Virus record (IMG/VR): IMGVR_UViG_3300025597_000012 | DNA from: a virus | Length of the DNA stretch: 64,000 bases | Reading direction: 5' to 3' (one strand) | Shown: piece after piece, positions 47,178-58,544 of the stretch | Numbering within the stretch: position 1 is the stretch's first letter | Layout of the letters: each line of letters starts with the position of its first letter | Made by a program: the position numbers and the translations under genes | The notes under the pieces: model-generated | What the model saw: the letters and a program-made list of their open reading frames with translations, nothing else | Told to the model about the DNA's origin: nothing | Databases searched by the model: none

Positions 47178-47538
47178 GTTTTTTATTTTTATCGTATGCT
47201 GTCCATTTTAACTCCATTTTATTATCTTTATTTGAAGCGTTAAATATTTCAATTCCACAATTTGAAGAAAGAGATGCCGTCTTTTTTACTATAGGACAGC
47301 CACACTGAATACAGTGTTCATCTTTTCTCATAGTTACATAATTGCCGGCAGCTACTGCATTCTTACTTAAAAAAGGACATCCTTCACAGATAGCTCTTCT
47401 TCTTACTATCTCTTTAACTTCATCTTCTTGTAGGTCTCCTGCTTCTAATTTAATATCATTAAGCCATCCTTCAAGTATTTTATCAGCATTAGTCAATGCT
47501 CTCGGTATCAATTTCAGGTATTCCAAAAGTGCGCTCAT
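47170..47538 (-). CDS. Cys-cluster (zinc-binding?) protein
   Basis: CEGCPF...CIQCGCP motifs. Confidence 0.35.
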   Translation of the reverse strand: MSALLEYLKLIPRALTNADKILEGWLNDIKLEAGDLQEDEVKEIVRRRAICEGCPFLSKNAVAAGNYVTMRKDEHCIQCGCPIVKKTASLSSNCGIEIFNASNKDNKMELKWTAYDKNKKHD

Positions 47539-47893
47539 CTTTTAATTTTTTCTGTTCTAATCTATAAATTGCTAAGTCGTTTCTTTTCTTTAATAACTTT
47601 CTAAGATTTTCATATTTATAATCTAAGATTAAATTTTTCTTTTTTTCTGTAAACTTAGGTGAATAATATATGTTTCTTATTTTAGCTATTTCATCTTTTA
47701 TTTCAAAATAAAGTTTTTTAGGACTTACACAAATAGTTCCAAAATTCTTTATATAGATAGCATCATAAACTACATTAGCCAGTTGTTTTTTAATTCCTTC
47801 TTTCCAATAAAAAGCATTTACTTTCTTAACTAGATTAACTGGTAGATTTAGTTCTTCGGCTGCCTGTTTATAATAATTATCGGGTGTCTTCAT
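47489..47893 (-). CDS. Hypothetical basic protein (134 aa)
   Basis: ORF. It overlaps the next gene by 50 nt, so one of the two boundaries is uncertain. Confidence 0.35.
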   Translation of the reverse strand: MKTPDNYYKQAAEELNLPVNLVKKVNAFYWKEGIKKQLANVVYDAIYIKNFGTICVSPKKLYFEIKDEIAKIRNIYYSPKFTEKKKNLILDYKYENLRKLLKKRNDLAIYRLEQKKLKDERTFGIPEIDTESID

Positions 47894-48234
47894 TAACTAT
47901 TATCAACTTTAATTAAAACTCCTATAGCTGCGTCAGATTGAAAATTAATTTTATCGTTTATATGATATTCTTTAAGAGATGTTGATTTTTTAAGCAAACC
48001 AACTCTTTTAAGTTTAGAAATTGTATTGTTTAAAGAATCTTCGCTTTTCAAAAGTTCACTTTTTAATATCAGTTGTCTTGTGCTCTCACTATCTTTATAA
48101 ACTAAAAAATAAGCTAATACGGTAAGTTCCGTATCTGAAAGTTTAATATCAGACAATAAACAAAAAATTGAAAGAACAACTTTTGCCTGTTCAATCTTTC
48201 CGTAGCTCTTTTTTTCAATCTTTATAAGTTGCAC
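47893..48234 (-). CDS. Hypothetical protein (113 aa, HTH-like?)
   Basis: First ORF after the promoter at 48254-48284. Confidence 0.35.
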   Translation of the reverse strand: MQLIKIEKKSYGKIEQAKVVLSIFCLLSDIKLSDTELTVLAYFLVYKDSESTRQLILKSELLKSEDSLNNTISKLKRVGLLKKSTSLKEYHINDKINFQSDAAIGVLIKVDNS

Positions 48235-48253
48235 AACTAATTGGTTTTGAGGA

Positions 48254-48284
48254 CAAAGATAAGTATTTTATTTGAAATAACAAA
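48254..48284 (-). promoter_or_regulatory. Bacteroidota-type promoter of the morphogenesis operon
   Basis: Minus strand reads TTTG-N19-TATCTTTG. Confidence 0.6.
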
Positions 48285-48322
48285 ATTTTATATAAGACTT
48301 TAACATTTTGGTAACAAACAGG

Positions 48323-48358
48323 AAAGGCCGACTTACAACTAGTTGTAAATCAGCCTTT
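48323..48358 (-). terminator. Long near-perfect hairpin closing tRNA array 1
   Basis: AAAGGCCGACTTACAACT/AGTTGTAAATCAGCCTTT palindrome. The T-tract is clear on the plus strand and weaker on the minus strand. Confidence 0.45.
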
Positions 48359-48408
48359 TAATTTAACCCTCCACCTTAGTCCTGTACCAGCGGGATTGGG
48401 GGAATACG

Positions 48409-48480
48409 CACGGGCTGTGGGCATCGAACCCATCTCCATGCAAGGTTTTGGAGACCTGCTGCTTCCTAAAGCTAGCCCGG
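48409..48480 (-). tRNA. tRNA-Trp(CCA), non-canonical
   Basis: Anticodon loop CTCCAAA and T-arm ATGGG-TTCGATG-CCCAC. Irregular features are a tiny D-loop (GCTT-TAGG-AAGC), a C1.U72 mismatch and an 8-nt variable region. The TGG codon in the upstream leader supports the call. Confidence 0.5.
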
Positions 48481-48485
48481 ATAAG

Positions 48486-48558
48486 TACACTCTAAAAGAT
48501 TCGAACTTTTATTTCTTGGTTCGTAGCCAAGTGTCCTCATCCATTGGACGAAGAGTGC
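48486..48558 (-). tRNA. tRNA-Arg(ACG)
   Basis: Cloverleaf with anticodon loop CTACGAA and T-arm AAAAG-TTCGAAT-CTTTT. Confidence 0.8.
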
Positions 48559-48563
48559 AAAAG

Positions 48564-48636
48564 TGTGAATGACCAGACTCGAACTGGTACTTAGTAGCTC
48601 CACAAACTACCGCTCTACCATTAAGCTACATCCACC
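48564..48636 (-). tRNA. tRNA-His(GUG) with encoded G-1
   Basis: Anticodon loop TTGTGGA, an extra 5' G before acceptor GTGGATG, and T-arm ACCAG-TTCGAGT-CTGGT. Confidence 0.8.
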
Positions 48637-48643
48637 ATATGAG

Positions 48644-48714
48644 ATGCCTCTAAAGGACTCGAACCTGTAACTCTTGACCCAAAATCAAGCGTGTTGCCAT
48701 TACACTAAGAGGCA
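48644..48714 (-). tRNA. tRNA-Gln(UUG)
   Basis: Acceptor TGCCTCT/AGAGGCA (U1:A72) and anticodon loop TTTTGGG. Confidence 0.8.
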
Positions 48715-48719
48715 AAAAG

Positions 48720-48791
48720 CGTGGAAGGTGGATTCCGAGACCACAACACCTTGCTCTTCAGGCAAGTGCTCTACCTTTGAGCTACATCCAC
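48720..48791 (-). tRNA. tRNA-Phe(GAA), unusual T-loop
   Basis: Anticodon loop CTGAAGA. The T-loop is 9 nt (TCTCGGAAT) and there is one acceptor mismatch. Confidence 0.6.
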
Positions 48792-48798
48792 ATAATTG

Positions 48799-48872
48799 AG
48801 CCTGAGAAGGGAATCGAACCCTCAACCGCTAGTTTACAAAACTAGTGCTCTACCGATTGAGCCACTGCAGGC
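48799..48872 (-). tRNA. tRNA-Thr(UGU), bulged acceptor stem
   Basis: Anticodon loop TTTGTAA. The acceptor GCCTG(C)AG/CTCAGGC needs a 1-nt bulge. Confidence 0.6.
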
Positions 48873-48876
48873 ATAG

Positions 48877-48948
48877 TCTAGTTGACAGGGTTCGAACCTG
48901 CCTAGTCTTGCTCCCAAAGCAAGTGCCTAACCAATCGGCCACAACTAG
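48877..48948 (-). tRNA. tRNA-Pro(UGG)
   Basis: Perfect acceptor CTAGTTG/CAACTAG and anticodon loop TTTGGGA. Confidence 0.85.
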
Positions 48949-48952
48949 AAAT

Positions 48953-48977
48953 AAAAAACCCCGCTTTATAGGCGGGG
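48953..48977 (-). terminator. Intrinsic terminator (attenuator) immediately 5' of tRNA array 1
   Basis: Minus strand reads CCCCGC-CTATAAA-GCGGGG followed by TTTTTT. It ends 4 nt before tRNA-Pro. Confidence 0.7.
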
Positions 48978-49003
48978 CTTTAAGTATAATAATTGAGTTT
49001 CAA

Positions 49004-49078
49004 TTAGTTACACGTAGTGCATCCGCCACCAGATATTGTGGGCGTAAACCAAAAGCGTGTATGTTGAAACTGTTTCAT
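49004..49078 (-). CDS. Leader peptide L1 (24 aa) MKQFQHTRFWFTPTISGGGCTTCN
   Basis: Hand-translated, and below the ORF-track size cutoff. Codons 3-14 (Q F Q H T R F W F T P T) use only the 7 amino acids whose tRNAs follow, and they use all 7. It lies between the promoter and the terminator. Confidence 0.6.
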   Translation of the reverse strand: MKQFQHTRFWFTPTISGGGCTTCN

Positions 49079-49139
49079 ATTTAAAAAAGACCAATTCTAA
49101 GCGCGCTGTTCTATAGGAAGCGGAACTGGTATATTGATG

Positions 49140-49171
49140 CAAACTTACGAAGAATTTTTCAATCCTCCAAA
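49140..49171 (-). promoter_or_regulatory. Bacteroidota-type promoter of leader L1 / tRNA array 1
   Basis: Minus strand reads TTTG-N20-TAAGTTTG. Confidence 0.65.
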
Positions 49172-49204
49172 TTTATTTTGTTAAAATAACTAAAAAGAAT
49201 TAAT

Positions 49205-49741
49205 TTAACTTCCTAACTCATTGTCTAACAGACGTAAAGCTATTTTATCTGTACCAAAGGCAGCTAATCTATCCATAAGATTTTGAGTCTTTTCATGCTC
49301 TTCTATTTGTTCTTGTAAATATTTCATACCTAAAGTATAGAGCATAAAATCTGCTTCTTTTAAAGCATTAGCTGTCAATTCTTTACATTGCTTAGTTATA
49401 TCAATTTCATGTTGATAAGACTGTTTAATTATATCCGGTAAACCTGCAAATGTTTGTTTAGGTGAGTCTAGTTTTGGAGTTTCAGGTTGAACACCCATAG
49501 CTAAGAGATACTCTCTAGACCATTCTGCGTGTTTTAGCTCTTCCTCTGAATATTTTCTCCAAAGCTTTGCTGAACCTAGATAACCATTATTATTTAACCA
49601 CAGACTCATGGCTAAATATAGACGAGAAGAAAGCTCCTCTTGTTGGATTCTATTATTTAAAAATTGAACACATTTATTAGATAATAGTTCATTTTTACCT
49701 GTAAGGGAAATAGAATCTGTAGTTTTAAAATTAAGTTCCAT
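49205..49741 (-). CDS. Ferritin-like iron-storage protein
   Basis: IQQEELSSRLYLAMSLW...GSAKLWRKYSEEELKHAEW...SYQHEIDIT...LQEQIEEHE reproduces the spacing of ferroxidase-centre E/H residues in bacterial Ftn (compared from memory with E. coli FtnA). Confidence 0.7.
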   Translation of the reverse strand: MELNFKTTDSISLTGKNELLSNKCVQFLNNRIQQEELSSRLYLAMSLWLNNNGYLGSAKLWRKYSEEELKHAEWSREYLLAMGVQPETPKLDSPKQTFAGLPDIIKQSYQHEIDITKQCKELTANALKEADFMLYTLGMKYLQEQIEEHEKTQNLMDRLAAFGTDKIALRLLDNELGS

Positions 49742-49754
49742 TAAAAATTTTTCA

Positions 49755-49786
49755 CAAATATAACACTTTTTTGTGAAATTACCAAA
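49755..49786 (-). promoter_or_regulatory. Bacteroidota-type promoter of the ferritin gene
   Basis: Minus strand reads TTTG-N20-TATATTTG, 13 nt before the ATG. Confidence 0.65.
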
Positions 49787-49790
49787 TTTG

Positions 49791-49875
49791 TGAGAGTGGC
49801 TGGAGTCGAACCAGCACCCTTGCGGGACTACAGTTTTACAGACTGCTCCACCTAACCGATAGGTAGCTCACTCTC
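49791..49875 (-). tRNA. tRNA-Tyr(GUA), class II
   Basis: Anticodon loop CTGTAAA, variable arm CCC-GCAA-GGG and perfect acceptor GAGAGTG/CACTCTC. Confidence 0.8.
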
Positions 49876-49881
49876 AAATAG

Positions 49882-49967
49882 CGGAAACGAAAGGACTCGA
49901 ACCTTCAACCCAAATTAACGAGTAACGGTTTAGCAAACCGCTGCAGTACCATTATGCTTACGCTTCC
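49882..49967 (-). tRNA. tRNA-Ser(GCU), class II
   Basis: Anticodon loop TTGCTAA, long variable arm and T-arm GAAGG-TTCGAGT-CCTTT. Confidence 0.7.
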
Positions 49968-49972
49968 AATAG

Positions 49973-50056
49973 CGGTAGAGACAGGAATCGAACCTGTACG
50001 GCTATTACACCTTCATGGTTTTCAAGACCAATAAGCCCTCTCATTTGCGCTCTACC
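49973..50056 (-). tRNA. tRNA-Ser(UGA), class II
   Basis: Acceptor GGTAGAG/CTCTACC, anticodon loop CTTGAAA and long variable arm. The D-stem is weak. Confidence 0.6.
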
Positions 50057-50062
50057 AATATG

Positions 50063-50148
50063 TACTCCTGACTGGACTCGAACCAGCACGTCCATTTCTG
50101 GACAAGGGATTTTAAGTCCCTCGTGTCTACCAATTCCACCACAGGAGC
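50063..50148 (-). tRNA. tRNA-Leu(UAA), class II
   Basis: D-arm GTGGAATTGGTAGACAC, anticodon loop CTTAAAA and variable arm GTCC-AGAAAT-GGAC. Confidence 0.8.
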
Positions 50149-50153
50149 ATATG

Positions 50154-50237
50154 TAGCCTCGGAGAGACTCGAACTCTCACGTCCTTACGGACACTAGCTC
50201 CTAAGGCTAGCGCGTCTACCAATTCCGCCACAAGGCC
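50154..50237 (-). tRNA. tRNA-Leu(UAG), class II
   Basis: D-arm GCGGAATTGGTAGACGC, anticodon loop CTTAGGA and variable arm GTCC-GTAA-GGAC. Confidence 0.8.
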
Positions 50238-50240
50238 AAT

Positions 50241-50268
50241 AAAAAACCCCGACTATTGCTCGCCGGGG
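50241..50268 (-). terminator. Intrinsic terminator (attenuator) immediately 5' of tRNA array 2
   Basis: Minus strand reads CCCCGGC-GAGCAATA-GTCGGGG followed by TTTTTT. It ends 3 nt before tRNA-Leu. Confidence 0.7.
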
Positions 50269-50300
50269 TTTGAGGTTAAAGACCGTAGTCTAAAACAAGT

Positions 50301-50369
50301 TTACATAGTATTCCCAGCTCGATTTTTACTCGATAAACTGAGGGAATAATATGTGTTGTTTGTCTTCAT
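50301..50369 (-). CDS. Leader peptide L2 (22 aa) MKTNNTYYSLSLSSKNRAGNTM
   Basis: Hand-translated. Codons 7-14 are TAT TAT TCC CTC AGT TTA TCG AGT (Y Y S L S L S S). They use only Tyr/Ser/Leu and cover both Ser boxes and both Leu boxes, matching the downstream Leu, Leu, Ser, Ser, Tyr tRNAs. Confidence 0.6.
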   Translation of the reverse strand: MKTNNTYYSLSLSSKNRAGNTM

Positions 50370-50386
50370 TGCGTTTGAAAGGAATA

Positions 50387-50418
50387 CAAATATACGAAAA
50401 ATATTTGAAACTACCAAA
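50387..50418 (-). promoter_or_regulatory. Bacteroidota-type promoter of leader L2 / tRNA array 2
   Basis: Minus strand reads TTTG-N20-TATATTTG. Confidence 0.65.
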
Positions 50419-50424
50419 TTTTTA

Positions 50425-52368
50425 TTAATAAATATTTATTGCTAGTTTTTCTTTAAATAACTGCTTTTGGTAAAAGCGTTGTTTTAAAAATGAATATCTA
50501 TCGTAAGATTTGTTAATATCATATAATAAATTAGCTAATAAAGAGTTACCAACAGAAGCTATAAAAGTATTTATTTTTTGAAATAACGCTCTGAAATACA
50601 AGATATTAGTTTCTCTTGTAGGAAGGTGAATCTTTACTGATTTAGGTACTCTTACTGGCGGTGCTTCATTTACTGTTACCTGAACAGTATCTGTTCCTAC
50701 TGCACCATTGTTATCAGTAACTGTTAATGTAAATGTATATATTCCGGCTGCTAAACCGCTAACTATAGTAGTTGGTGAAGTAGGTGTTTCTATTAAATGT
50801 GCTGTAGGCCCACTTGTTTTTGTCCAATTATAAGAAGAAATAGTGCCATCTGTATCAGTCCCGCTACCATTTAAAGTTGCACTATTAGCAGGAAGAGTTA
50901 TAATTTTATCTTCTCCTGCATTTGCAACTGGGGCTATATTTTGTGCAGCAATTACAGTAATTATTACATTAGAACTGCCTGTTGCACCGTTATTATCAGT
51001 AACTGTAAGTCTAAAAGTATATATACCTGTAGATAAAGCACTTACAACCGTTGATGCGGAATTAGGTGATTGTATAGTAGCATTTGTAGGGCCACTAACT
51101 TGAGTCCAAGCATATGAAGAAATAGTCCCATCACTATCCGAACCGGTTCCGTTTAAAGTCACAGAACTTGCTGGTGCTTGTATAGATTGATTATTTCCTG
51201 CATTTGCAGTGGGTGGGGTATTTCCAACACAATTTGTTGTATATACTATTCCCGGTGTAACATCTATATCCGATGGAGAATTATCTGCTAATTTTGTATT
51301 TCCACAAATTATATTATCTGTGTTATATCTATTTGGATAATTTCCTCCATTATCATCAACACTAATATCAAAAGTTTGAAGAGAACCGCGAGAACCTGTT
51401 CTATTATTCTTGATAATAAATGTAGTATTCTCTACAGGAATTGTATTTCTTGGAGAAACAATAATAGCCCAAGGCCATACAAGACTATGGTCTAAACCAT
51501 CTCTTGTAGCTGAAGCAGGAAGAAATCCACTATGATTAATAGTATTATTTTCAATTCTTACATAAGTTCCTCCAAGTGAAGCAATACCCCAAACATAAGT
51601 ATAATCAATATTATTATCATGAATATACACTTTTGAATAAAGTCCTATATTAATACCGTTACCTTGACCATCACTAATTTCAAGACCTGCATTAGTAATT
51701 GTATTATTATAAATTTCACTTATACCAAGTTCAGCATCAGAAAGTTGAATAGCGGCACGACCTGTTTTATCAAATATGTTATGGTGAATTTTAAAATTAC
51801 CAAGGCGTGTCGGTTTATATTGTCCTTGAGTTGCAGGCACTCCATTACAAACAATAGGATTTCTATCTAACCAAAGAGCATTAGGGTCTGTAGAACCACA
51901 GTACATACCTTCGTATGTAATATTTCTTACTCTACAGTGATGAACTTCAATATTATTTATATACCAGTTAGGATATTGTAATGATGGGTCACAACTAGCT
52001 TCATTTTTAATCCAAAAACCAAAGGCTCCACCATCTATATCTATGTTAGAAACTTCTATATCAGAAACTCTTCCATGTAAAGAACATCCTGTTGAAACAA
52101 AACCATAGGTATCTGCTGAACCAGTTCCTAAAATTTTAATATGTGTACAATGTTCAATATCAAATGATACTTGAACTTGTCCGCCTTCATTTATAATGGT
52201 GATAGGCTGGTCAGCAGTACCATGTACTTCTGCCATATAAAAATAACTTCTAGGATTATCTGAAGCTCTAAGTACAATAGTATCTCCCGGATTAAAAATA
52301 CCCGGACTATTGATACCATTAAACATGTAACCGTTGTCTCCCTGTTTACCGGGATAATGTATTGCCAT
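50425..52368 (-). CDS. Right-handed beta-helix (polysaccharide lyase/depolymerase-like) protein with two PKD/Ig-like repeats
   Basis: Beta-helix repeat signatures NNTITNAG, IHDNNIDY and IENNTINHSG. Two repeats follow of the form ANAG.(D/N)..I..P...(V/A)TLNG(T/S)G(S/T)D(S/T)DGTISSY.WT.(V/T)SGPT. Confidence 0.55.
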   Translation of the reverse strand: MAIHYPGKQGDNGYMFNGINSPGIFNPGDTIVLRASDNPRSYFYMAEVHGTADQPITIINEGGQVQVSFDIEHCTHIKILGTGSADTYGFVSTGCSLHGRVSDIEVSNIDIDGGAFGFWIKNEASCDPSLQYPNWYINNIEVHHCRVRNITYEGMYCGSTDPNALWLDRNPIVCNGVPATQGQYKPTRLGNFKIHHNIFDKTGRAAIQLSDAELGISEIYNNTITNAGLEISDGQGNGINIGLYSKVYIHDNNIDYTYVWGIASLGGTYVRIENNTINHSGFLPASATRDGLDHSLVWPWAIIVSPRNTIPVENTTFIIKNNRTGSRGSLQTFDISVDDNGGNYPNRYNTDNIICGNTKLADNSPSDIDVTPGIVYTTNCVGNTPPTANAGNNQSIQAPASSVTLNGTGSDSDGTISSYAWTQVSGPTNATIQSPNSASTVVSALSTGIYTFRLTVTDNNGATGSSNVIITVIAAQNIAPVANAGEDKIITLPANSATLNGSGTDTDGTISSYNWTKTSGPTAHLIETPTSPTTIVSGLAAGIYTFTLTVTDNNGAVGTDTVQVTVNEAPPVRVPKSVKIHLPTRETNILYFRALFQKINTFIASVGNSLLANLLYDINKSYDRYSFLKQRFYQKQLFKEKLAINIY

Positions 52369-52378
52369 TTATTTTAAT

Positions 52379-52744
52379 TTAGGATATTACTTTAGTTGTT
52401 GAATCACTATAGGTTATAGTGACTATTTTTGTATCAAAATCTACTACTACATCATCTATTACTCTAGTAACAGTTACTTTTACACTATCTGAACTAGTTG
52501 CTCCTTTGTTATCAGTAGCAGTTAATTTAAACGTATAACTACCTAAAAGAAGTCCTGTAATTGTAGGAGTAAGGGTATTTTGTCCTGTAATTGTACAAGT
52601 ACCTCCGCTAGTTTTAGTCCAAACTACTGAAGAAATAGTACCATCAGGGTCTGTGGCAGTTCCAGTTAGAACTATTTGATTATTAGGAAGTTGTACTATT
52701 TTATCAACTCCTGCATTTACTATAGGTACTTTATTTATTGCCAT
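52379..52744 (-). CDS. PKD/Ig-like domain protein (start trimmed to MAINKVP)
   Basis: The same repeat type is present (VNAGVDKIVQLPNNQIVLTGTATDPDGTISSVVWTKTSG). The track start at 52780 lies inside the promoter, and the next ATG is 52744. Confidence 0.5.
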   Translation of the reverse strand: MAINKVPIVNAGVDKIVQLPNNQIVLTGTATDPDGTISSVVWTKTSGGTCTITGQNTLTPTITGLLLGSYTFKLTATDNKGATSSDSVKVTVTRVIDDVVVDFDTKIVTITYSDSTTKVIS

Positions 52745-52749
52745 ATTTA

Positions 52750-52781
52750 CAAATATACAAAAAAAAAACCATATTGCCAAA
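52750..52781 (-). promoter_or_regulatory. Bacteroidota-type promoter
   Basis: Minus strand reads TTTG-N20-TATATTTG, 5 nt before ATG 52744. Confidence 0.6.
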
Positions 52782-52784
52782 TTT

Positions 52785-53243
52785 CTAGTTTCGGCAAATA
52801 TGGTCTGCTGCTTTTGAAGCTATCATCTCGTCTGGTTTTACTAAAACATTATATCCTAGTGATTTAACCCAACCGGTAATAGCTGGAACAAGATTTGTTG
52901 ATTTTGTTATTTTTGCATTATTATAATCGAACTCAAGGGCTTCAAATTGGACTGGAACTTCTGCATTTATAGTTTGAGCTGTATCTATTGTTATTTCAGC
53001 TTCCTTCCATAAACGGCTAAAAGTATCCCTTATCCTAGGGATTCTTTGCTTTCTATATACAAAGTGTGCTCCCCTAAGTCCATATCTGAACACAACCGCC
53101 GTAGCGTAAACTGTATTCGACCCGTAATTCTGTGAGTCAGTAGCTATGTAAATCTTTAGGTTTGGATTCTGCTGTATTTGTTCTACAACGTGTTCCACTA
53201 TGTTTACTAACTTTCCTTCCTCTGTCCGAAAGTATTTGTCCAT
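52785..53243 (-). CDS. YkuK/DUF458-like RNase-H-fold protein
   Basis: The pattern LKIYIATDSQNYGSNTVYATAVVFRYGLRGAHFVYRKQRIPRIRDTFSRLWKEAEITI matches, from memory, the ..GTDSQ....tiv.H..g.Ga.f.Y.k signature of this family. Confidence 0.5.
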   Translation of the reverse strand: MDKYFRTEEGKLVNIVEHVVEQIQQNPNLKIYIATDSQNYGSNTVYATAVVFRYGLRGAHFVYRKQRIPRIRDTFSRLWKEAEITIDTAQTINAEVPVQFEALEFDYNNAKITKSTNLVPAITGWVKSLGYNVLVKPDEMIASKAADHICRN

Positions 53244-53255
53244 TGGTTTTATTTG

Positions 53256-53331
53256 TGGAATCTATGGGCATCGAACCCATCTGGTATTCTGCTTGCAAGG
53301 CAGACGACCACTCCAAGCAGTCCCAGACCCC
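53256..53331 (-). tRNA. tRNA-Ala(UGC)
   Basis: Acceptor GGGGTCT/AGATTCC includes the G3.U70 pair. Anticodon loop CTTGCAA and T-arm ATGGG-TTCGATG-CCCAT. Confidence 0.7.
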
Positions 53332-53456
53332 AAATGCGGGGGACTACGGCCCCCTAAAGATGTCTTATTAGGTTTCATCTCTGTCCCGGATTACGCTAGC
53401 GAGCTACCGGGGAAACCACGCTACATACTTTCGTAGAGGTTATGCGGGTTACACTG
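53332..53456 (-). other. Structured 125-nt spacer inside the tRNA array (not foldable as a tRNA)
   Basis: Nested stems GGTTTC/GAAACC and CCCGG/CCGGG, hairpin GGGGG-CCGTAGT-CCCCC and hairpin TAC-GAAA-GTA. No T-loop. Confidence 0.35.
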
Positions 53457-53529
53457 TGCTCACGCTAAGACTCGAACTTAGACTCTCTCGCGTATCAGGC
53501 GAGAGCTTTAACCATTAAGCTACATGAGC
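53457..53529 (-). tRNA. tRNA-Ile(GAU)
   Basis: Anticodon loop CTGATAC and T-arm CTAAG-TTCGAGT-CTTAG. Confidence 0.8.
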
Positions 53530-53581
53530 TGGAGAGGGACAGGTTATTTATACCTTCAAAGGACTCCCTCAGACCTCTTCG

Positions 53582-53654
53582 TACTCTCAAAGGGATTCGA
53601 ACCCTAAATTGCCTGTGTATAAGACAGGAGTTTTCACCGTTAAACTATGAGAGC
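53582..53654 (-). tRNA. tRNA-Ile(UAU)
   Basis: Anticodon loop CTTATAC and T-arm TAGGG-TTCGAAT-CCCTT. AUA codons are used three times in leader L3. Confidence 0.7.
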
Positions 53655-53801
53655 AAGTAAAGAGAGTGGGATTAGATTTCCGGGGATTGACCCAACCTGT
53701 GTCCTAATCTTATTTATCCTTGTACGGAGGCACACTCTCTTTGAATGGTCGGGCGGATTGCTTCTTTCAGCCTCAGACATTAATTACAATGTTGCCCGAT
53801 G
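53655..53801 (-). other. Structured 147-nt spacer inside the tRNA array (tRNA-like stems but no canonical cloverleaf)
   Basis: Acceptor-like pairs TCGGGC/GCCCGA and GAGAGTG/CACTCTC. Internal hairpins ACATT-GTAATTA-AATGT and GATTAG...CTAATC. No TTCGA T-loop. Confidence 0.3.
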
Positions 53802-53874
53802 CGGTCTATCACGGATTCGAACCGAGACTACCGCATAGACAGTGCGGCGTGTTCAACCATTACACTAATAGACC
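53802..53874 (-). tRNA. tRNA-Asp(GUC)
   Basis: Perfect acceptor GGTCTAT/ATAGACC and anticodon loop CTGTCTA. Confidence 0.8.
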
Positions 53875-54504
53875 ATAAACTTTATCCATGTTTGTTTTTC
53901 CGTTGCCATGAATAATCAACGGCTGAGTACCAGTTTTTTTATTAATCAGGATTCCATGTCTGTACTCAAAGTCATCTTCTGATTCAAAAGCTACAGATTG
54001 AAATAAATCACAGTTGGTATCCAACTTCATGTTATATTTATCTCTGTGCTTCAGATAAATTTCTGCTAAGTTAACTTGGTCATTATCACTATGTTTTATT
54101 GGATAATCCTCAAACATCTTGATAAATAAATCTACATTAACAAAGCATGCACCACCATTCAGATATTTCCAATCACTTTTTACTTTAGGATATTTTTCTG
54201 CCCAATCTGAATAAGGCCAGCATCCTTTTTCTGCGTTAAATATAATAGAATCAATATCATCTATTCTATCTATTGCTTGTTGCATTGTACCCAAAACTAT
54301 GATGTCATAAGTGTCTAGGATAAACAAGTGAGTACAATCTGTTTGCTTTGCATAGTTATAAGCGTTAACCATTTTACTACCATAAGCTTTATAGGTATCA
54401 GTCAGAATATCATAATTCCAATCAAACCTATCAAGTGAATCTTTAAACTGTTTAAACCCTTCGTGGTTTAAGTTGGTTGCTGTTCCTATTACGTTTACTT
54501 TCAT
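53860..54504 (-). CDS. GT-A glycosyltransferase resembling the collagen (LH3/PLOD-type) glycosyltransferase domain
   Basis: LFILDTYDIIV (DxD-like), FNAEKGCWPY, KYLNGGACFVNV and PLIIHGNGKT. From memory, these parallel VDSYDVI / FSAE.FCWP / FLNSGGFIG / VHGNGPTK of LH3. The 3' end overlaps tRNA-Asp by 15 nt. Confidence 0.5.
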   Translation of the reverse strand: MKVNVIGTATNLNHEGFKQFKDSLDRFDWNYDILTDTYKAYGSKMVNAYNYAKQTDCTHLFILDTYDIIVLGTMQQAIDRIDDIDSIIFNAEKGCWPYSDWAEKYPKVKSDWKYLNGGACFVNVDLFIKMFEDYPIKHSDNDQVNLAEIYLKHRDKYNMKLDTNCDLFQSVAFESEDDFEYRHGILINKKTGTQPLIIHGNGKTNMDKVYGLLV

Positions 54505-55289
54505 TTGAATGGATTATAATAAATAGATATTGTATTATTCTTATAACCCTGAACGGTTTCGTGATAGGTTTTCCATTGTTCAGAAGCATGGTTTTCTTTC
54601 CATTTCTGGTATGGTGTTCCTCCTGTATCTATGTGTTCTATCTCTATATGAGGTAAGAATACACTTTTAAACCCTGATAGTCTTGCTCTTATAGACATAA
54701 GGACATCATCAAATCCGTATAAACTAGGTTGGTATAAATAACCTATTTTATCAAGTAAAGCTGCTGAGTGCATAACACAAGTACCCATCACATGATTTAC
54801 TTGTTCTACTACTACCCATTTTTCACCGGGCTGGTGTTGAAGCATTAGTAATTCTGACTTATAAAAATCAGTTCTATTTGGTGATTCCCAACAATCTTTT
54901 CTTTTCAAGCCCACCTGTCCAATAGTATTGTCACGGCGAAAAACTTCTTCCATCTGTTCTATCCAACCTGATTGATGTATTACTACATCATCATCAATTT
55001 TAACACAATTCTCTCCGGGTTTTCTTTCTTTCCATGCTAAATTAATAGCTTCAGCAGTTCCTAGATTTTTATCATTCCAGATAACTTTATCAATTACAGA
55101 AAAAATTCCATTTGATTCAGAAAAATCTTCTATTATTTCTTTTGTTCTAGTAGTATAGGAATTTACAGAAAGTATTAATCTGTGTGAATCCCAGTCAACT
55201 GTTTTTTCTAAAGAATCTAATGTTTTATAAAGATATGTATCTTTATCATTATCTTCAGTACAATAAACAGCCATTGCTATTAAAGCCAT
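54501..55289 (-). CDS. Family-2-like glycosyltransferase (start trimmed to MALIAMAVYC)
   Basis: GT2-like N-terminal beta-strand, NLGTAEAINLAW and a KIDDDVVI DxD motif. The track start at 55331 lies inside tRNA-Glu. Confidence 0.55.
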   Translation of the reverse strand: MALIAMAVYCTEDNDKDTYLYKTLDSLEKTVDWDSHRLILSVNSYTTRTKEIIEDFSESNGIFSVIDKVIWNDKNLGTAEAINLAWKERKPGENCVKIDDDVVIHQSGWIEQMEEVFRRDNTIGQVGLKRKDCWESPNRTDFYKSELLMLQHQPGEKWVVVEQVNHVMGTCVMHSAALLDKIGYLYQPSLYGFDDVLMSIRARLSGFKSVFLPHIEIEHIDTGGTPYQKWKENHASEQWKTYHETVQGYKNNTISIYYNPFK

Positions 55290-55304
55290 TGGTTTTATTT
55301 TTAG

Positions 55305-55379
55305 TATTCTGGAAGGGACTCGAACCCTCACTGACCACAGTGAAAGTGTGGTGACTTATTCCAATTTGTCAACCAGAAC
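55305..55379 (-). tRNA. tRNA-Glu(UUC)
   Basis: Anticodon loop CTTTCAC and T-arm GAGGG-TTCGAGT-CCCTT. Confidence 0.8.
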
Positions 55380-55380
55380 A

Positions 55381-55452
55381 TTTGCAGTTTAGTCGGCCTC
55401 TACTATACCTAGGCCGCAGAGAGTATAGACTCGTATTCCATCTACTGCAAAA
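55381..55452 (-). other. 72-nt three-way-junction element between tRNA-Gly and tRNA-Glu
   Basis: Closing stem TTTGCAG(tt)TAG/CTACTGCAAA and hairpins CGGCC-13nt-GGCCG and GAGT-ATAG-ACTC. Its size is tRNA-like, but there is no T-loop and no anticodon arm. Confidence 0.3.
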
Positions 55453-55460
55453 AGGAATTG

Positions 55461-55531
55461 AGCGAGTAGTGGGAGTCAAACCCACGCCTTAACCTTGGAA
55501 GGGTCATATGCTATCGTAACACTTCACTCGC
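55461..55531 (-). tRNA. tRNA-Gly(UCC)
   Basis: Anticodon loop CTTCCAA and T-arm GTGGG-TTTGACT-CCCAC. The 5' 21 nt overlap the HNH ORF's 3' end. Confidence 0.7.
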
Positions 55532-55942
55532 TAATGCTTCTTTATAATGTAAATCTCTATGACAATTAGCACATAAAACTTTACATTTATTTATTTCTTC
55601 TTGTAATAGTTTTTTAGAACATTTTGTTACAAGTTGTGATACTTCTGAATCTTTTTCATTTGGATTTTTATGATGAAAATCTAAAACCCAATATCTACTA
55701 TCTCCACATGATTCACAAGATAAAGTACTTTTGTATTCAGAAAACCATTTTCTAAAGTCTTGTTTATACTTTACTGCTTTTTGAATATACTTTTCTTTAT
55801 TTTTTTCGTAATGCTTTTTTCTATATTCTTTTTGACAAGCTTTACAATTACTTTGATAAAGTAAATTTTTTCTATCTTTTCTTGTAGCAAACTCCGTTAA
55901 AGGAAGTTCTTTTTTACAAATTGTACATTTTTTAATTTTCAT
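55511..55942 (-). CDS. HNH endonuclease (start trimmed to MKIKKCT)
   Basis: CxxC pairs plus DFHHKNP...CANCHRDLH. The track start at 55978 lies inside the promoter. Confidence 0.65.
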   Translation of the reverse strand: MKIKKCTICKKELPLTEFATRKDRKNLLYQSNCKACQKEYRKKHYEKNKEKYIQKAVKYKQDFRKWFSEYKSTLSCESCGDSRYWVLDFHHKNPNEKDSEVSQLVTKCSKKLLQEEINKCKVLCANCHRDLHYKEALASEVLR

Positions 55943-55947
55943 ATATG

Positions 55948-55979
55948 TAAATATACGAAAAATAATTGATACTTCCAAA
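55948..55979 (-). promoter_or_regulatory. Bacteroidota-type promoter (imperfect -7 box TATATTTA)
   Basis: Minus strand reads TTTG-N20-TATATTTA, 5 nt before ATG 55942. Confidence 0.45.
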
Positions 55980-56001
55980 TTTTATTTTATTTGGAAGGAT
56001 G

Positions 56002-56073
56002 TTGCGTAGGCTGGATTCGAACCAGCGACCTAATGGTTATGAGCCATCCGAGCTACCTCTGCTCTACCACGCA
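56002..56073 (-). tRNA. tRNA-Met(CAU) (elongator or Ile2-type; not initiator-like)
   Basis: Anticodon loop CTCATAA and T-arm GCTGG-TTCGAAT-CCAGC. There is no GGG/CCC anticodon stem. Confidence 0.75.
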
Positions 56074-56183
56074 ATTTATCCCCGGACTAGTGCGCCTTCC
56101 TCCGGGGGTGTTATTGCTTATCTTCTTCGTCAATAACTAAACCCTTTTGGGTCGGCCAACGGATACTATCCGCAGGGGGGGGG
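56074..56183 (-). other. Hairpin-dense 110-nt spacer upstream of tRNA-Met with a C9 (plus-strand G9) homopolymer
   Basis: Stems CGGA/TCCG, ACCC/GGGT, TTATTG/CAATAA and CCCCGGA/TCCGGGG. The G9 run is at about 56175-56183. Confidence 0.3.
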
Positions 56184-56396
56184 CTATCTTAATATCTTTA
56201 AACCGCTGGTAGCAGTCCAAAGAACATAATTGTTTTTCTTTACTTCACCCATTACTATTTTCTTTTCATAATTAGTAACTCGTGAAGTAGGAAGGGTAAC
56301 CAACCAGTGAATGAATTTTTCTCGTTCACCTTTGTATTTTTTAATACTGGCTATCCTACGGTATTCCTTACCGTCTTTTATGACTGTATCATTCAT
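56184..56396 (-). CDS. Hypothetical protein (70 aa)
   Basis: ORF starting 2 nt after the tRNA-Asn 3' end. Confidence 0.35.
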   Translation of the reverse strand: MNDTVIKDGKEYRRIASIKKYKGEREKFIHWLVTLPTSRVTNYEKKIVMGEVKKNNYVLWTATSGLKILR

Positions 56397-56397
56397 G

Positions 56398-56472
56398 CGG
56401 GACAGGATGGACTCGAACCAACGACCTTAGAGTTAACAGCTCTCTGCTCTCGACCAACTGAGCTACAGTCCC
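56398..56472 (-). tRNA. tRNA-Asn(GUU)
   Basis: Anticodon loop CTGTTAA. One mismatch each in the acceptor and T stems. Confidence 0.65.
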
Positions 56473-56513
56473 CTTTTGTATTTTTAACTCCACGCAGAAT
56501 ACTAACTGACCTG

Positions 56514-56587
56514 AAGCCCTGAAAGGAGTCGAACCTTCATCTAATAGTTTAGAAAACTATGACATTCATCCATTATGCTACAGGGCC
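56514..56587 (-). tRNA. tRNA-Arg(UCU)
   Basis: Anticodon loop TTTCTAA and T-arm GAAGG-TTCGACT-CCTTT. Confidence 0.8.
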
Positions 56588-56590
56588 ATG

Positions 56591-56665
56591 TACATCTGGA
56601 ATGAGTCGAACATTCGGTCTCCGTCTTGTAAGGGCGGTGCTTTCAACCAACTAAGCTACAGATGC
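56591..56665 (-). tRNA. tRNA-Val(UAC)
   Basis: Anticodon loop CTTACAA and T-arm GAATG-TTCGACT-CATTC. One C.A mismatch in the anticodon stem. Confidence 0.7.
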
Positions 56666-56720
56666 AAATATAATACTTTATTTAAAGCTTACCAAATAAA
56701 GTATGTTAAAGTTTTGTTAG

Positions 56721-56791
56721 AGGACAAGATAGGAATCGAACCTACGCTGGAGGTGTTGCAGACCTCTGCCTTACCGCTTGGCTACTTGTCC
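56721..56791 (-). tRNA. tRNA-Cys(GCA)
   Basis: Perfect acceptor GGACAAG/CTTGTCC and anticodon loop CTGCAAC. Confidence 0.8.
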
Positions 56792-56794
56792 ATG

Positions 56795-56868
56795 TGCTAC
56801 CGAAGGGACTCGAACCCATAACCTCCTGATTAAAAGTCAGAAGCTCTACACTATTGAGCTACGATAGC
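56795..56868 (-). tRNA. tRNA-Lys(UUU)
   Basis: Anticodon loop CTTTTAA and D-arm GCTC-AATAGTGTA-GAGC. Confidence 0.75.
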
Positions 56869-56872
56869 AAAT

Positions 56873-56897
56873 AAAAAACCCTCCTTTAAGGGGAGGG
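56873..56897 (-). terminator. Intrinsic terminator (attenuator) immediately 5' of tRNA-Lys
   Basis: Minus strand reads CCCTCC-CCTTAAA-GGAGGG followed by TTTTTT. It ends 4 nt before tRNA-Lys. Confidence 0.7.
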
Positions 56898-56920
56898 CTT
56901 CAGTAATATTCGTGGTTAAA

Positions 56921-57013
56921 TTAAACCAGTTCTATATCAGACATAGCTCTCCTGATGATGGTATCTCTACCCACCTCTTTACAAATCATATTTATGGCTA
57001 TGTTCTTTCTCAT
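56921..57013 (-). CDS. Leader peptide L3 (30 aa) MRKNIAINMICKEVGRDTIIRRAMSDIELV
   Basis: Hand-translated. The first 17 residues use exactly the 11 amino acids (K C V R N M G E D I A) of the 12 tRNAs between here and the next leader. All Arg codons are AGA/AGG, and Ile is encoded by ATA three times plus ATT/ATC. Confidence 0.55.
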   Translation of the reverse strand: MRKNIAINMICKEVGRDTIIRRAMSDIELV

Positions 57014-57030
57014 TTTAAATTTAAGTTATG

Positions 57031-57062
57031 CAAACTTACGACAAATATTTGGATTTTCCAAA
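57031..57062 (-). promoter_or_regulatory. Bacteroidota-type promoter of leader L3
   Basis: Minus strand reads TTTG-N20-TAAGTTTG. Confidence 0.65.
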
Positions 57063-57080
57063 TTTATTAATAGAAAATAA

Positions 57081-57281
57081 TTAAATCTTTTGTGAATATC
57101 TTTTCCAGCCTGTAACTTTATTGATAGCGTCTACTAGTTTATTGTAATCTTTACGCCAGTTTTTATAAGCTTTGGAGCGTTTATCTGATGGCTCCTTAGC
57201 GGCCTGTTCAGCTAAAAGTTCATCAGCATGACCTACGTTTACAATAATTATTTCTTTATCGTCAATCATTACTCTTTCCAT
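57081..57281 (-). CDS. Hypothetical protein (66 aa)
   Basis: ORF coupled to its upstream neighbour. Confidence 0.35.
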   Translation of the reverse strand: MERVMIDDKEIIIVNVGHADELLAEQAAKEPSDKRSKAYKNWRKDYNKLVDAINKVTGWKRYSQKI

Positions 57282-57607
57282 TACTTTATTCTTTTAATAA
57301 GTTCACCACTAAGCTCCTCATAAATTCTTGAGAATTTTTCATAACCCATTCTTATTAAGAACATTCCGTAGTTTAAAAATATCTTTACGTGCTCATCATC
57401 TTCTTTACCATAAGCTACAATATCATTTAAATTGACTACTAATGGTTTATATGTAGTTTCTGAATCATCTTCATCTTCTTCATCTTCTTCATATTTATCA
57501 CCTTTAATCAGACGTTTAGCTATTCTTGCAGCTTTGTCTTCTTCTGATTCATTGTTCTTGTCTTTAAAGACTCTTACTTTTACAAAAAATTCTACGCGTT
57601 GTGCCAT
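57281..57607 (-). CDS. Hypothetical acidic protein (108 aa)
   Basis: ORF with an EDEEDEDD tract. Confidence 0.35.
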   Translation of the reverse strand: MAQRVEFFVKVRVFKDKNNESEEDKAARIAKRLIKGDKYEEDEEDEDDSETTYKPLVVNLNDIVAYGKEDDEHVKIFLNYGMFLIRMGYEKFSRIYEELSGELIKRIK

Positions 57608-57620
57608 GTTTTTTATTTTG

Positions 57621-57736
57621 CAGTATGGGAAGGATTCGAACCTTCATAGTTTAATGTATCGTTCACTAGGAATACTTAATACTTATAAACTGCCACCGAG
57701 ACTAGGTGGTGCGTCTGCCAGTTCCGCCACCGTACT
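57621..57736 (-). tRNA. Aberrant 116-nt tRNA-like gene (identity unassigned)
   Basis: Acceptor AGTACGG/CCATACT (one mismatch), a Leu-type D-arm GCGGAACTGGCAGACGC and a canonical T-arm GAAGG-TTCGAAT-CCTTC. The anticodon loop TAGTCTC has A at position 33, and about 46 nt are inserted in the variable region. Its own promoter ends 7 nt upstream. Confidence 0.4.
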
Positions 57737-57743
57737 ATAAGTA

Positions 57744-57774
57744 CAAAGATAGTGAAAAATTTTGAGATTACAAA
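57744..57774 (-). promoter_or_regulatory. Bacteroidota-type promoter of the tRNA-like gene
   Basis: Minus strand reads TTTG-N19-TATCTTTG. Confidence 0.6.
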
Positions 57775-57776
57775 AT

Positions 57777-58544
57777 TTATAATCGACTTCCTAGAAAAAT
57801 TAATCCTCCAAATTCCAGAGCTTTTAACAAAATATTAGGTTTTTTAACAGGAGAATAGATTACTGAATTCTGTCCCATTACGTTAATAAATTGTGAACTA
57901 TGCAATACCTGAACCTGAAATTTAGGTTTAGAGAAAGGATGGAAAAATCCTCTTTTAAGTTTTACTACTCTAATATATTGAGTATCAGCTATTGAGATAG
58001 TTCCAAGATGAAATCCTGTCTTTGTGATTACTCCTGAAAGTCTTATACCTTCCTGATATTTATCTTCAACGCTATCTAAAGTTACAGCTTTAGGAACCTT
58101 AATCATATTGTTCAGGACGTAGTTATATAAAGAGGCTGTGTCTTTATATTTACTTAATTCCTTTCTAACACTGTCTATGGTAGCTGTGTCCTTATAAGGA
58201 ATGAAGGTATTATCTATATGAGCTGAGAGTTGTGCTTCGTAGTAGAATGTGACATCCTTAATTTTCTTCTCATACTTTTTAGTCAGATTAAACTTCTGGT
58301 CAGTAAGGTCTTTAATCTCAGCTTGATTATCTGTGATAATAGAAGTCTGAGTATAAACGGTTTGTTTTAACTCATTTTTAATACTGTCTAATTTTTGGTT
58401 AGCTAAGGTCAAAGAATCCAATGCCACGTTCTGACGAGCTACTTGGGATTCGTAATTACACTTGTTAAGAAAAAGACAAAGAAATAATCCAGCTATTACT
58501 GAGAAATAAATGTAGTCTTTGAAATTAATTTTAGGGAATGTCAT
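57777..58544 (-). CDS. Membrane-anchored / lipoprotein-like protein (255 aa)
   Basis: N-terminal hydrophobic segment ending ...LFLNKC. Confidence 0.4.
   Translation of the reverse strand: MTFPKINFKDYIYFSVIAGLFLCLFLNKCNYESQVARQNVALDSLTLANQKLDSIKNELKQTVYTQTSIITDNQAEIKDLTDQKFNLTKKYEKKIKDVTFYYEAQLSAHIDNTFIPYKDTATIDSVRKELSKYKDTASLYNYVLNNMIKVPKAVTLDSVEDKYQEGIRLSGVITKTGFHLGTISIADTQYIRVVKLKRGFFHPFSKPKFQVQVLHSSQFINVMGQNSVIYSPVKKPNILLKALEFGGLIFLGSRL

Follow-up and report, generated by a model that had tools for sequence, protein, structure and literature searches.

A stretch of viral DNA 64,000 nucleotides long (IMG/VR record IMGVR_UViG_3300025597_000012; called here, at its full length, the window) carries a large set of transfer RNA (tRNA) genes that is organized in three units. 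We consider it very probable that this is the tRNA module of a Bacteroidota-infecting phage, and that each of its units is gated by a ribosome-mediated leader-peptide attenuator that senses the supply of tRNAs. Each unit includes a promoter, a short open reading frame (ORF) that starts with ATG, and an intrinsic terminator that abuts the first tRNA gene of an array, and the central codons of the ORF are those read by the tRNAs encoded downstream. The genes for TerL, the portal and the major capsid protein are located just downstream on the same strand, which identifies the window as phage DNA. A first-pass annotation had described this region as a near-complete tRNA set interrupted by protein genes; every element that it named stood, although its interpretation was incomplete, given that the leader ORF/terminator units placed before the arrays were overlooked.

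The first unit precedes Pro(UGG), Thr(UGU), Phe(GAA), Gln(UUG), His(GUG), Arg(ACG) and Trp(CCA) (array 1, 48408-48948; the window features described here lie on the minus strand). The second precedes array 2 (49790-50237), which consists entirely of class II tRNAs, i.e. Leu(UAG), Leu(UAA), Ser(UGA), Ser(GCU) and Tyr(GUA). The third precedes the remaining 12 tRNAs, which include array 3a with Lys(UUU), Cys(GCA), Val(UAC), Arg(UCU) and Asn(GUU) (56397-56868), Met(CAU) (56001-56073), Gly(UCC) and Glu(UUC) (55304-55531; 55460-55531 and 55304-55379, respectively), and array 3b with Asp(GUC), Ile(UAU), Ile(GAU) and Ala(UGC) (53255-53874). These genes were called with ARAGORN and Rfam, Trp only under relaxed settings.

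A motif scan placed a Bacteroidetes-type promoter before each leader ORF: at 49140-49171 (-33 TTTG ... -7 TAAGTTTG), at 50387-50418 (TTTG ... TATATTTG) and at 57031-57062 (TTTG ... TAAGTTTG). The attenuator promoters fit TTTG-N19-TAnnTTTG and are located ~100-190 nt upstream of their terminator hairpins; the broader motif TTTG-N17-21-TAnnTTTG has 13 sites in the window against 3.2 expected, a number that none of 100 shuffles reached. The leader ORFs have 22-30 codons and start 13-55 nt downstream of the -7 box. L1 (49004-49078) encodes MKQFQHTRFWFTPTISGGGCTTCN, which includes MKQFQHTRFWFTPT; L2 (50301-50369) encodes MKTNNTYYSLSLSSKNRAGNTM, with the core YYSLSLSS; and L3 (56921-57013) encodes MRKNIAINMICKEVGRDTIIRRAMSDIELV, which includes MRKNIAINMICKEVGRD, each followed by a stop codon. 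The 5' untranslated region of L1 is 55 nt long and contains a stable hairpin (49090-49130), whereas those of L2 and L3 are 13 nt long and have no such hairpin. Terminator 1 (48949-48981, hairpin 48981-48955; 10 bp, 6 of them GC, and a U-run) ends 1 nt before tRNA-Pro, terminator 2 (50238-50271, hairpin 50271-50244) abuts tRNA-Leu(UAG), and terminator 3 (56869-56901, hairpin 56901-56875) abuts tRNA-Lys. These three, each with 10 bp, 5-6 GC pairs and a U-run, are the strongest terminators that precede a tRNA between 48200 and 57900; in an independent terminator scan they topped the list for the region together with the terminator that closes array 1 (48323-48358).

The codon content of each leader corresponds to the array that it precedes. 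Codons 3-14 of L1 are exclusively those for Gln, Phe, His, Thr, Arg(CGC), Trp and Pro, with CGC corresponding to Arg(ACG); in the core of L2 (TAT TAT TCC CTC AGT TTA TCG AGT) each of the five class II tRNAs has its codon box; and codons 2-17 of L3 specify exclusively the 11 amino acids of its 12 tRNAs, with AGA for Arg(UCU), ATA for Ile(UAU) and ATT/ATC for Ile(GAU). All 24 tRNAs of the window have at least one codon of their own box in their own leader. Among 200,000 segments of real phage proteins, none reached the run of 12 residues within the seven-amino-acid set of L1 or the run of 8 within {L,S,Y} of L2, and for the run of 16 in L3 the probability among such segments was P = 0.002. In-set runs of this length are present only in L1, L2 and L3 among the 523 ATG ORFs of 15-45 codons found on both strands of the window.

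When the region was compared by megablast with 50,697 phage records, only isolated tRNA matches and no close DNA relative came up. By TerL, the nearest isolates are the Leptolyngbya phage Lbo-JY46 (49% identity) and the Cellulophaga phages phi4:1 and phi17:2 (31%). Further relatives were collected by scanning IMG/VR with a TerL profile; the ferritin and the YkuK-like protein were dropped as anchors, given that the relatives of the former have no tRNAs and the latter has no relatives in IMG/VR. The scan yielded 80 loci, and 23 non-redundant terminator-to-tRNA junctions were recovered in 15 loci; the TerL proteins of the related phage loci that show the design are 30-63% identical. Each of the 23 junctions has an ATG ORF, 18-36 codons in length, whose end is separated from the terminator stem by 19-34 nt. 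The tRNA region of Lbo-JY46 is syntenic and has three matching units, whose leaders begin with MKITRQHTQFWFPT, MKNFNTYYSLSLSLS and MINSIDIRNIDIVCAEGVNKC. The arrays of phi4:1 are composed otherwise than those of the window, and its leaders differ in step: the leader that begins with MKIQRLHLQELEQP and carries QRLHLQELEQP precedes Pro, Glu, Gln, His, Leu, Leu and Arg; the one that contains QLTKTGITVIDKTKGARAY precedes Ala, Lys, Ile, Gly, Met, Asp, Thr, Val, Arg and Met (until the third leader); and the one that begins with MKTNYCTYNNSNWSFSY precedes Tyr, Ser, Ser, Asn, Trp and Phe. Likewise, in locus L026 the leader NNWHNTFNNFTPDQQD precedes Pro-Asp-Asn-Thr-Phe-Gln-His-Trp-Cys. Bacteroides phage DAC19, which is unrelated and has 3 tRNAs, has no such leader; therefore, the design is not universal among Bacteroidota phages.

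Across the junctions, leaders and arrays have evolved together. The amino acids of the array account for 345 of 568 residues of its own leader, compared with 196 expected from the phage proteome (z = 14.1); when arrays were swapped among leaders the match fell to 203 ± 20 with a maximum of 284, and none of 20,000 permutations reached 345. Along the ORF the match peaks at 0.83-0.96 (codons 8-15) and drops to ~0.35-0.45 towards both ends; read in the leader frame it is 0.61, versus 0.33 and 0.37 in the other two. Looking from the side of the tRNAs, 151 of the 161 called by default are represented in their own leader, and the misses come mostly from leaders that the detector overlooked. Shared ancestry was controlled for by swapping within types of homologous arrays: for the Pro-type arrays the own match was 103 of 143, against 77.7 ± 6.2 in within-type swaps (0 of 20,000 reached 103). 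An amino acid of variable membership that is present in an array tends also to be found in the core of its leader (odds ratio 13, p = 5.5e-15), and the same test on the mixed arrays gave an odds ratio of 45 (p = 2e-12).

The public records of two of these relatives deserve a comment. In phi4:1 (L014, NC_021788.1; 6990-7109 and 9118-9219), gp075, which the record calls a hypothetical protein, is a leader ORF that was mis-extended into its own promoter; there is an overlap between gp076 and a degenerate Ser(UGA) tRNA gene, and the first and third leaders are unannotated. The record of Lbo-JY46 (L013, PP438436.1) names a cyanobacterial host, while the promoters of its tRNA region fit the Bacteroidetes -33/-7 consensus; these promoters, and the fact that its nearest relatives infect Flavobacteriia, suggest that the phage may actually infect a Bacteroidota species present in the culture.

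The leaders also carry a complement of the terminator. We refer to the regulatory codons as region 1, to the Gly-rich tail of the ORF as region 2, and to the 5' and 3' arms of the terminator as regions 3 and 4. Pairing was analyzed by folding without the 3' arm of the terminator and by duplex prediction, in comparison with shuffled, swapped and genomic controls; full-length minimum-free-energy folding with ribosome masks was dropped, given that the stable terminator is always retained and a kinetic antiterminator cannot show. The C-rich 5' arm of the terminator has an upstream complement with a mean z of -2.9 against shuffles, and 20 of the 23 leaders are below -1. The partner is found within the last ~10 codons of the ORF, where Gly amounts to 17% as compared with 2% earlier and supplies G-runs. 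This complementarity is specific: the duplex between a leader and its own terminator arm has a mean of -13.5 kcal/mol versus -9.0 for swapped pairs (0 of 20,000 permutations reached the own-pair mean) and -7.6 for random genomic segments. In all 23 leaders the G-rich segment can alternatively pair with the regulatory codons upstream of it, so that the predicted 1:2, 2:3 and 3:4 pairings have the arrangement of classical attenuators.

For attenuator 1 of the window, region 2 is predicted to be the Gly-codon tail GGUGGCGG (49023-49032), which could pair with the Thr-Pro-Thr codons or with the terminator 5' arm (duplex of -8.4 kcal/mol, z = -0.97, which is weak). That of attenuator 2 is GCUGGGAA (50312-50319), predicted to pair with the Ser-Leu-Ser codons or with the terminator arm CCCCGGC; its duplex (-11.1 kcal/mol, z = -2.5) beats 100% of the genomic control segments. 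For attenuator 3, the predicted region 2 is at 56944-56953 (-9.6 kcal/mol, z = -0.5, again weak).

A bias in codon choice was observed as well in the regulatory codons, which lean to the weakest wobble partners of the phage tRNAs. In the leader cores of the window and 14 loci, 39% of the codons of family boxes end in C, versus 7% in long ORFs (chi-square p = 9e-39), and 91% of the codons of NNY two-fold boxes end in T, versus 72% in long ORFs. This bias could tune the sensitivity of the sensor, or could merely supply C residues that pair with region 2.

The mechanism that we propose follows the general model of leader-peptide attenuation (PMC1183508). A host-type promoter would drive transcription of a leader of 22-30 codons, of which ~6-16 in the center are cognate to exactly the tRNA species encoded downstream. 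The Gly-rich region 2 can pair either with region 1 or with the C-rich region 3, and no more than 0-2 nt separate the terminator formed by regions 3 and 4 from the first tRNA. Should any of the charged tRNAs of the group become scarce, the ribosome would stall on region 1 and free region 2, which would pair with region 3; the terminator would not form and the RNA polymerase would enter the array. With all the tRNAs plentiful, the ribosome would reach the stop codon and cover region 2, the terminator would form, and the array would be off. The outcome would be an OR-gated negative feedback on tRNA supply that operates per isoacceptor. Translation of the leaders, the direction of the switch and its physiological role are what we infer from this arrangement. 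As to that role, we lean towards a demand-driven tRNA homeostat, in which the leaders act as OR-gated sensors of isoacceptor abundance that open the matching array only when one of its members limits; a tRNA could become limiting from a mismatch with the codon usage of the host, from host shut-off, or from cleavage of host tRNAs by an anticodon nuclease.

Several points weigh against this model. The case is wholly computational, so that leader translation, 3' ends at the U-runs and regulated readthrough are predictions. The antiterminators of L1 and L3 in the window are weak, at the 80th-83rd percentile of the genomic controls, and the terminator is kept in every full-length minimum-free-energy fold. 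The correspondence has gaps: the second leader of Lbo-JY46 has Tyr and AGY-Ser codons and no Tyr or Ser(GCU) gene was detected in its array, and most of the leader of locus L021 lacks detected array tRNAs; gene loss or undetected degenerate tRNAs may account for these unmatched codons. The bias towards C-ending codons could be a structural constraint instead of a tuning of decoding speed. Attenuator 3 is followed by 3.6 kb with protein genes and promoter-like sites found in the motif scan, one before Val in array 3a (56665-56696) and one before the HNH gene; therefore, many of its 12 tRNAs could be transcribed independently, and the control of the distal ones may be partial or may reflect an ancestral contiguous array. 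Finally, transcription-translation coupling in Bacteroidota is, to our knowledge, poorly characterized.

The attenuators could sense the availability of amino acids, through tRNA charging in starvation, and so tie tRNA output to the nutrition of the host. The architecture is that of the attenuators of amino-acid operons, in which the signal is charged tRNA, and a ribosome would stall alike for an uncharged and for an absent tRNA. Nevertheless, we regard this as unlikely, because the codon boxes follow the isoacceptors, which makes tRNA supply the more likely signal. The Arg box of the leader fits the Arg anticodon present in the array in 12 of 14 informative cases, and both exceptions are in the ORF tail; AGA and CGC occur together in the leader of L026, the only array with both Arg tRNAs; and the two Leu boxes, like the two Ser boxes, are represented in every case, which would be needless for sensing the amino acid. 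Moreover, extra tRNA would presumably not relieve amino-acid starvation.

A different logic, in which translation of the leader promotes readthrough (a positive feedback, with the ribosome trailing the RNA polymerase) or controls the processing or stability of the precursor, would be compatible with the weak antiterminators of L1 and L3 and with a switch whose direction we deduced solely from its predicted parts. We judge it quite improbable, given that a stop codon located 19-34 nt before the terminator stem is too distant for a terminating ribosome to mask the hairpin, and that the specific, co-varying 2:3 complementarity together with the 1:2 pairing seen in every leader fits the classical model.

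The view that this is an ordinary phage tRNA cluster, in which the ORFs arose by chance or are small genes without a link to the tRNAs, and the hairpins do no more than end upstream transcripts, is strongly disfavoured and has very little chance of being correct. Short ORFs are indeed common in AT-rich genomes, as the 523 of the window attest, and none has been annotated as a leader: the phi4:1 record calls one a hypothetical protein and that of Lbo-JY46 annotates none. Such an origin would hardly produce the composition match with its dependence on frame and position, the covariation within array types, the constant distance between ORF and terminator at all junctions, or the promoter directly before each leader. 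As for leader peptides that act in trans as small proteins, with the codon match being incidental, precedents exist, such as peTrpL (PMC7298713), but the idea is barely credible here, since the relatives conserve the composition of the residues and not their order, and the composition shifts with the content of the array, whereas a folded or binding peptide should show the reverse.

The proposed attenuators resemble those of trpL, hisL, pheL, leuL, thrL and ilvL of Escherichia coli and Salmonella in that a promoter, an ORF with regulatory codons, the 1:2/2:3/3:4 pairings and a terminator precede the genes. Leaders that respond to more than one amino acid are found among the amino-acid operons, i.e. 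thrL (Thr, Ile) and ilvL (Ile, Leu, Val). The differences lie in the target and in the sensor. Those operons encode enzymes, whereas the phage elements regulate tRNAs: the first genes downstream are tRNAs, in place of the biosynthetic enzymes or synthetases that are the targets of the attenuator family. Runs of codons for one or two species are replaced in the phage by single or few codons for up to 12 species, with codon boxes that match isoacceptors; furthermore, the phage leaders are phage-borne, have a Bacteroidetes-type promoter and lack a Shine-Dalgarno sequence. Attenuation of a component of the translation apparatus is shared with pheM-pheST of E. coli and with the His-rich leaders before hisS/hisZ in bacilli (PMC2965389); unlike these, which control the charging enzyme of a single amino acid, the phage leaders would control tRNA genes for groups of amino acids.

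T-box riboswitches likewise bring about tRNA-responsive antitermination upstream of translation-related genes. They bind the uncharged tRNA directly by means of a specifier codon and the T-box sequence, and do so without translation; in contrast, the conserved feature of the phage units is a translatable ORF, and no match to the T-box family (RF00230) was found in 47500-58500 at E ≤ 10. Other known RNA families were rejected for the leaders, with only sub-threshold matches to Trp_leader and Phe_leader in Rfam; the former, at 48951-49037 (L1), is weak (33.9 bits, E = 7e-4, below the gathering score). The tRNA clusters of T4, T5, KVP40 and phi4:1 (23 annotated tRNAs) share with the module large arrays with small ORFs and homing-endonuclease genes, anticodons rich in U34 and G34, and no encoded CCA; what sets them apart is that the literature searched describes no attenuator for any of them. 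This full-text search covered phages and bacteria, with subscription-only papers outside its scope, and found no leader-peptide control of tRNA genes. We rate the codon-matched attenuators as a known type of regulation on a new target: a trpL-like way of working with tRNA genes as the regulated product.

We rate the tRNA set in itself as ordinary for large phages. The first-pass annotation had folded 24 minus-strand tRNAs for all 20 amino acids, and ARAGORN and Rfam, run with default plus relaxed settings, bear this out. ARAGORN with default settings called 21 minus-strand tRNAs (48485-56868), and 20 exceeded the gathering score of Rfam RF00005, so the possibility raised earlier that many calls would fall under covariance-model thresholds did not materialize. 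Gly(UCC) (55461-55531) scored 50.1 bits in Rfam and was not called by default ARAGORN; Tyr and Ala did not exceed the Rfam gathering score, yet pass default ARAGORN. Relaxed ARAGORN added Trp(CCA) (48408-48480), Ser(UGA) and Gly. The final set of 24 includes two genes each for Arg, Leu, Ser and Ile, and 22 of them pass either default ARAGORN or Rfam, with Trp and Ser(UGA) found only at relaxed thresholds. In a permissive Rfam run, four genes matched only the tRNA-Sec model and below its cut-off: Tyr (39.2 bits), Ser(UGA) (35.6), Ala (26.1) and Trp (19.6, the lowest score of the set). Most anticodons are of the U34 (13) or G34 (8) type, as had been claimed, the remaining three being ACG, CAU and CCA; the clustering of all class II tRNAs (2 Leu, 2 Ser, Tyr) likewise holds, since they are contiguous at 49790-50237. 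The absence of an encoded 3' CCA, previously noted for five genes, is true of all 24. A partial CCA is nonetheless uniform in these genes (48408-56868), in which C74 follows the discriminator and C75-A76 never do, a pattern that suggests a particular route of 3' processing or CCA addition.

Four genes had been flagged as deviant, and reading the sequence confirmed their features: a C is bulged out of the 5' acceptor strand of Thr, the T-loop of Phe has 9 nt (UCUCGGAAU), Trp has a C1.U72 mismatch and a short D arm, and Ser(UGA), which we place at 49972-50056, has a deviant D arm. Thr and Phe have good covariance scores all the same (55.2 and 50.9 bits). Lbo-JY46 has an identical T-loop in its Phe; a Trp with a short D arm is also present in Lbo-JY46, L031 and L051, with compensated stems; and the odd D arm of Ser(UGA) recurs in locus L022, where the acceptor stem is fully compensated. 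Each deviant tRNA has a cognate codon in the leader of its own array. It had been proposed that the deviant genes might turn out to be pseudogenes; this appears unlikely because diverged relatives conserve their odd features or compensate for them, and the leaders keep their codons. Lbo-JY46 lacks the acceptor bulge of Thr, which is peculiar to the window, and this gene is the best candidate for an impaired one. Ala(UGC) retains the G3.U70 identity pair, and Met(CAU) is of the elongator type, with U1-A72 paired and an anticodon stem without GGG/CCC.

A further tRNA-like gene of 117 nt, outside the 24, is located at 57620-57736, directly after a promoter at 57744-57774; its 5' end is the coordinate at which the first-pass annotation had closed the region, although its text did not mention the gene. 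Its D arm is Leu-like and its discriminator is G73, which is also found in Ser and Sec tRNAs; the variable hairpin is 47 nt long, and the anticodon loop, UAGUCUC, is non-canonical and lacks U33. No match was found in Rfam at E ≤ 10. Homologs are present in Lbo-JY46 (L013 29042-29142) and in L027 (6194-6293, inside a tRNA array), and their acceptor and T stems are fully compensatory. The gene appears to be a real structured RNA to which an anticodon could not be assigned; it may be a decoy, a recoding tRNA or a processing signal.

The protein genes reported earlier among the arrays were recovered with Pfam and PHROGs, which gave ferritin, two PKD proteins, a YkuK-like PF04308 protein, GT_PLOD, GT2 and HNH, and the picture of a near-complete tRNA set with interleaved protein genes is supported by these two databases together with ARAGORN and Rfam. 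The gene for the PF04308 RNaseH-like protein (YkuK/DUF458; 52785-53243) comes directly after the last tRNA, Ala. It follows Ala in Lbo-JY46 too (L013 24987-25466), where it is annotated as 'KVP40 Orf299', and this conserved linkage hints at a role in tRNA processing. The HNH endonuclease gene (phrog_2255; 55511-55978) precedes the Gly-Glu pair. HNH/homing-endonuclease genes occupy different positions within the arrays of the window and of L013 (25925-26752), and are upstream of the arrays in L031 and L048, a distribution that fits independent mobile insertions that split once-contiguous arrays. In array 1, the initial Pro and the order of the tRNAs are conserved in Lbo-JY46 and L022. The tRNAs of the third unit are separated by GC-rich spacers of 80-146 nt (53332-53455, 53655-53800, 55380-55459 and 56074-56183), some of them within array 3b, with modest predicted structure (z from -1.1 to -2.5) and no counterpart in Lbo-JY46. 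The corresponding tRNAs are only 3-42 nt apart in that phage; therefore, the spacers of the window are insertions, for which small RNAs, tRNA remnants and mobile elements are candidates. An ORF of 3,959 codons (1979-13858), which encodes a giant protein, lies downstream of the structural module.

Little is known of how phages regulate their tRNA genes, and leader-peptide attenuation is not known to act on tRNA genes in general. If the proposed mechanism is true, this would be the first case of tRNA genes controlled by ribosome-mediated attenuation, and each leader would be a readable manifest of the codons that its array decodes, structurally deviant tRNAs included. For annotation, it would provide an internal test of which deviant phage tRNAs function and which codons they read, and for engineering, compact codon-specific tRNA sensors. 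The idea is directly testable in Cellulophaga phage phi4:1, which is in culture together with its host. Since the sensor codons are read by the regulated product itself, the attenuators would establish a direct feedback loop on tRNA supply, and a common sensor would explain why tRNAs are grouped into particular arrays. The same loop suggests a route by which these phages may respond to host defences that target tRNAs.

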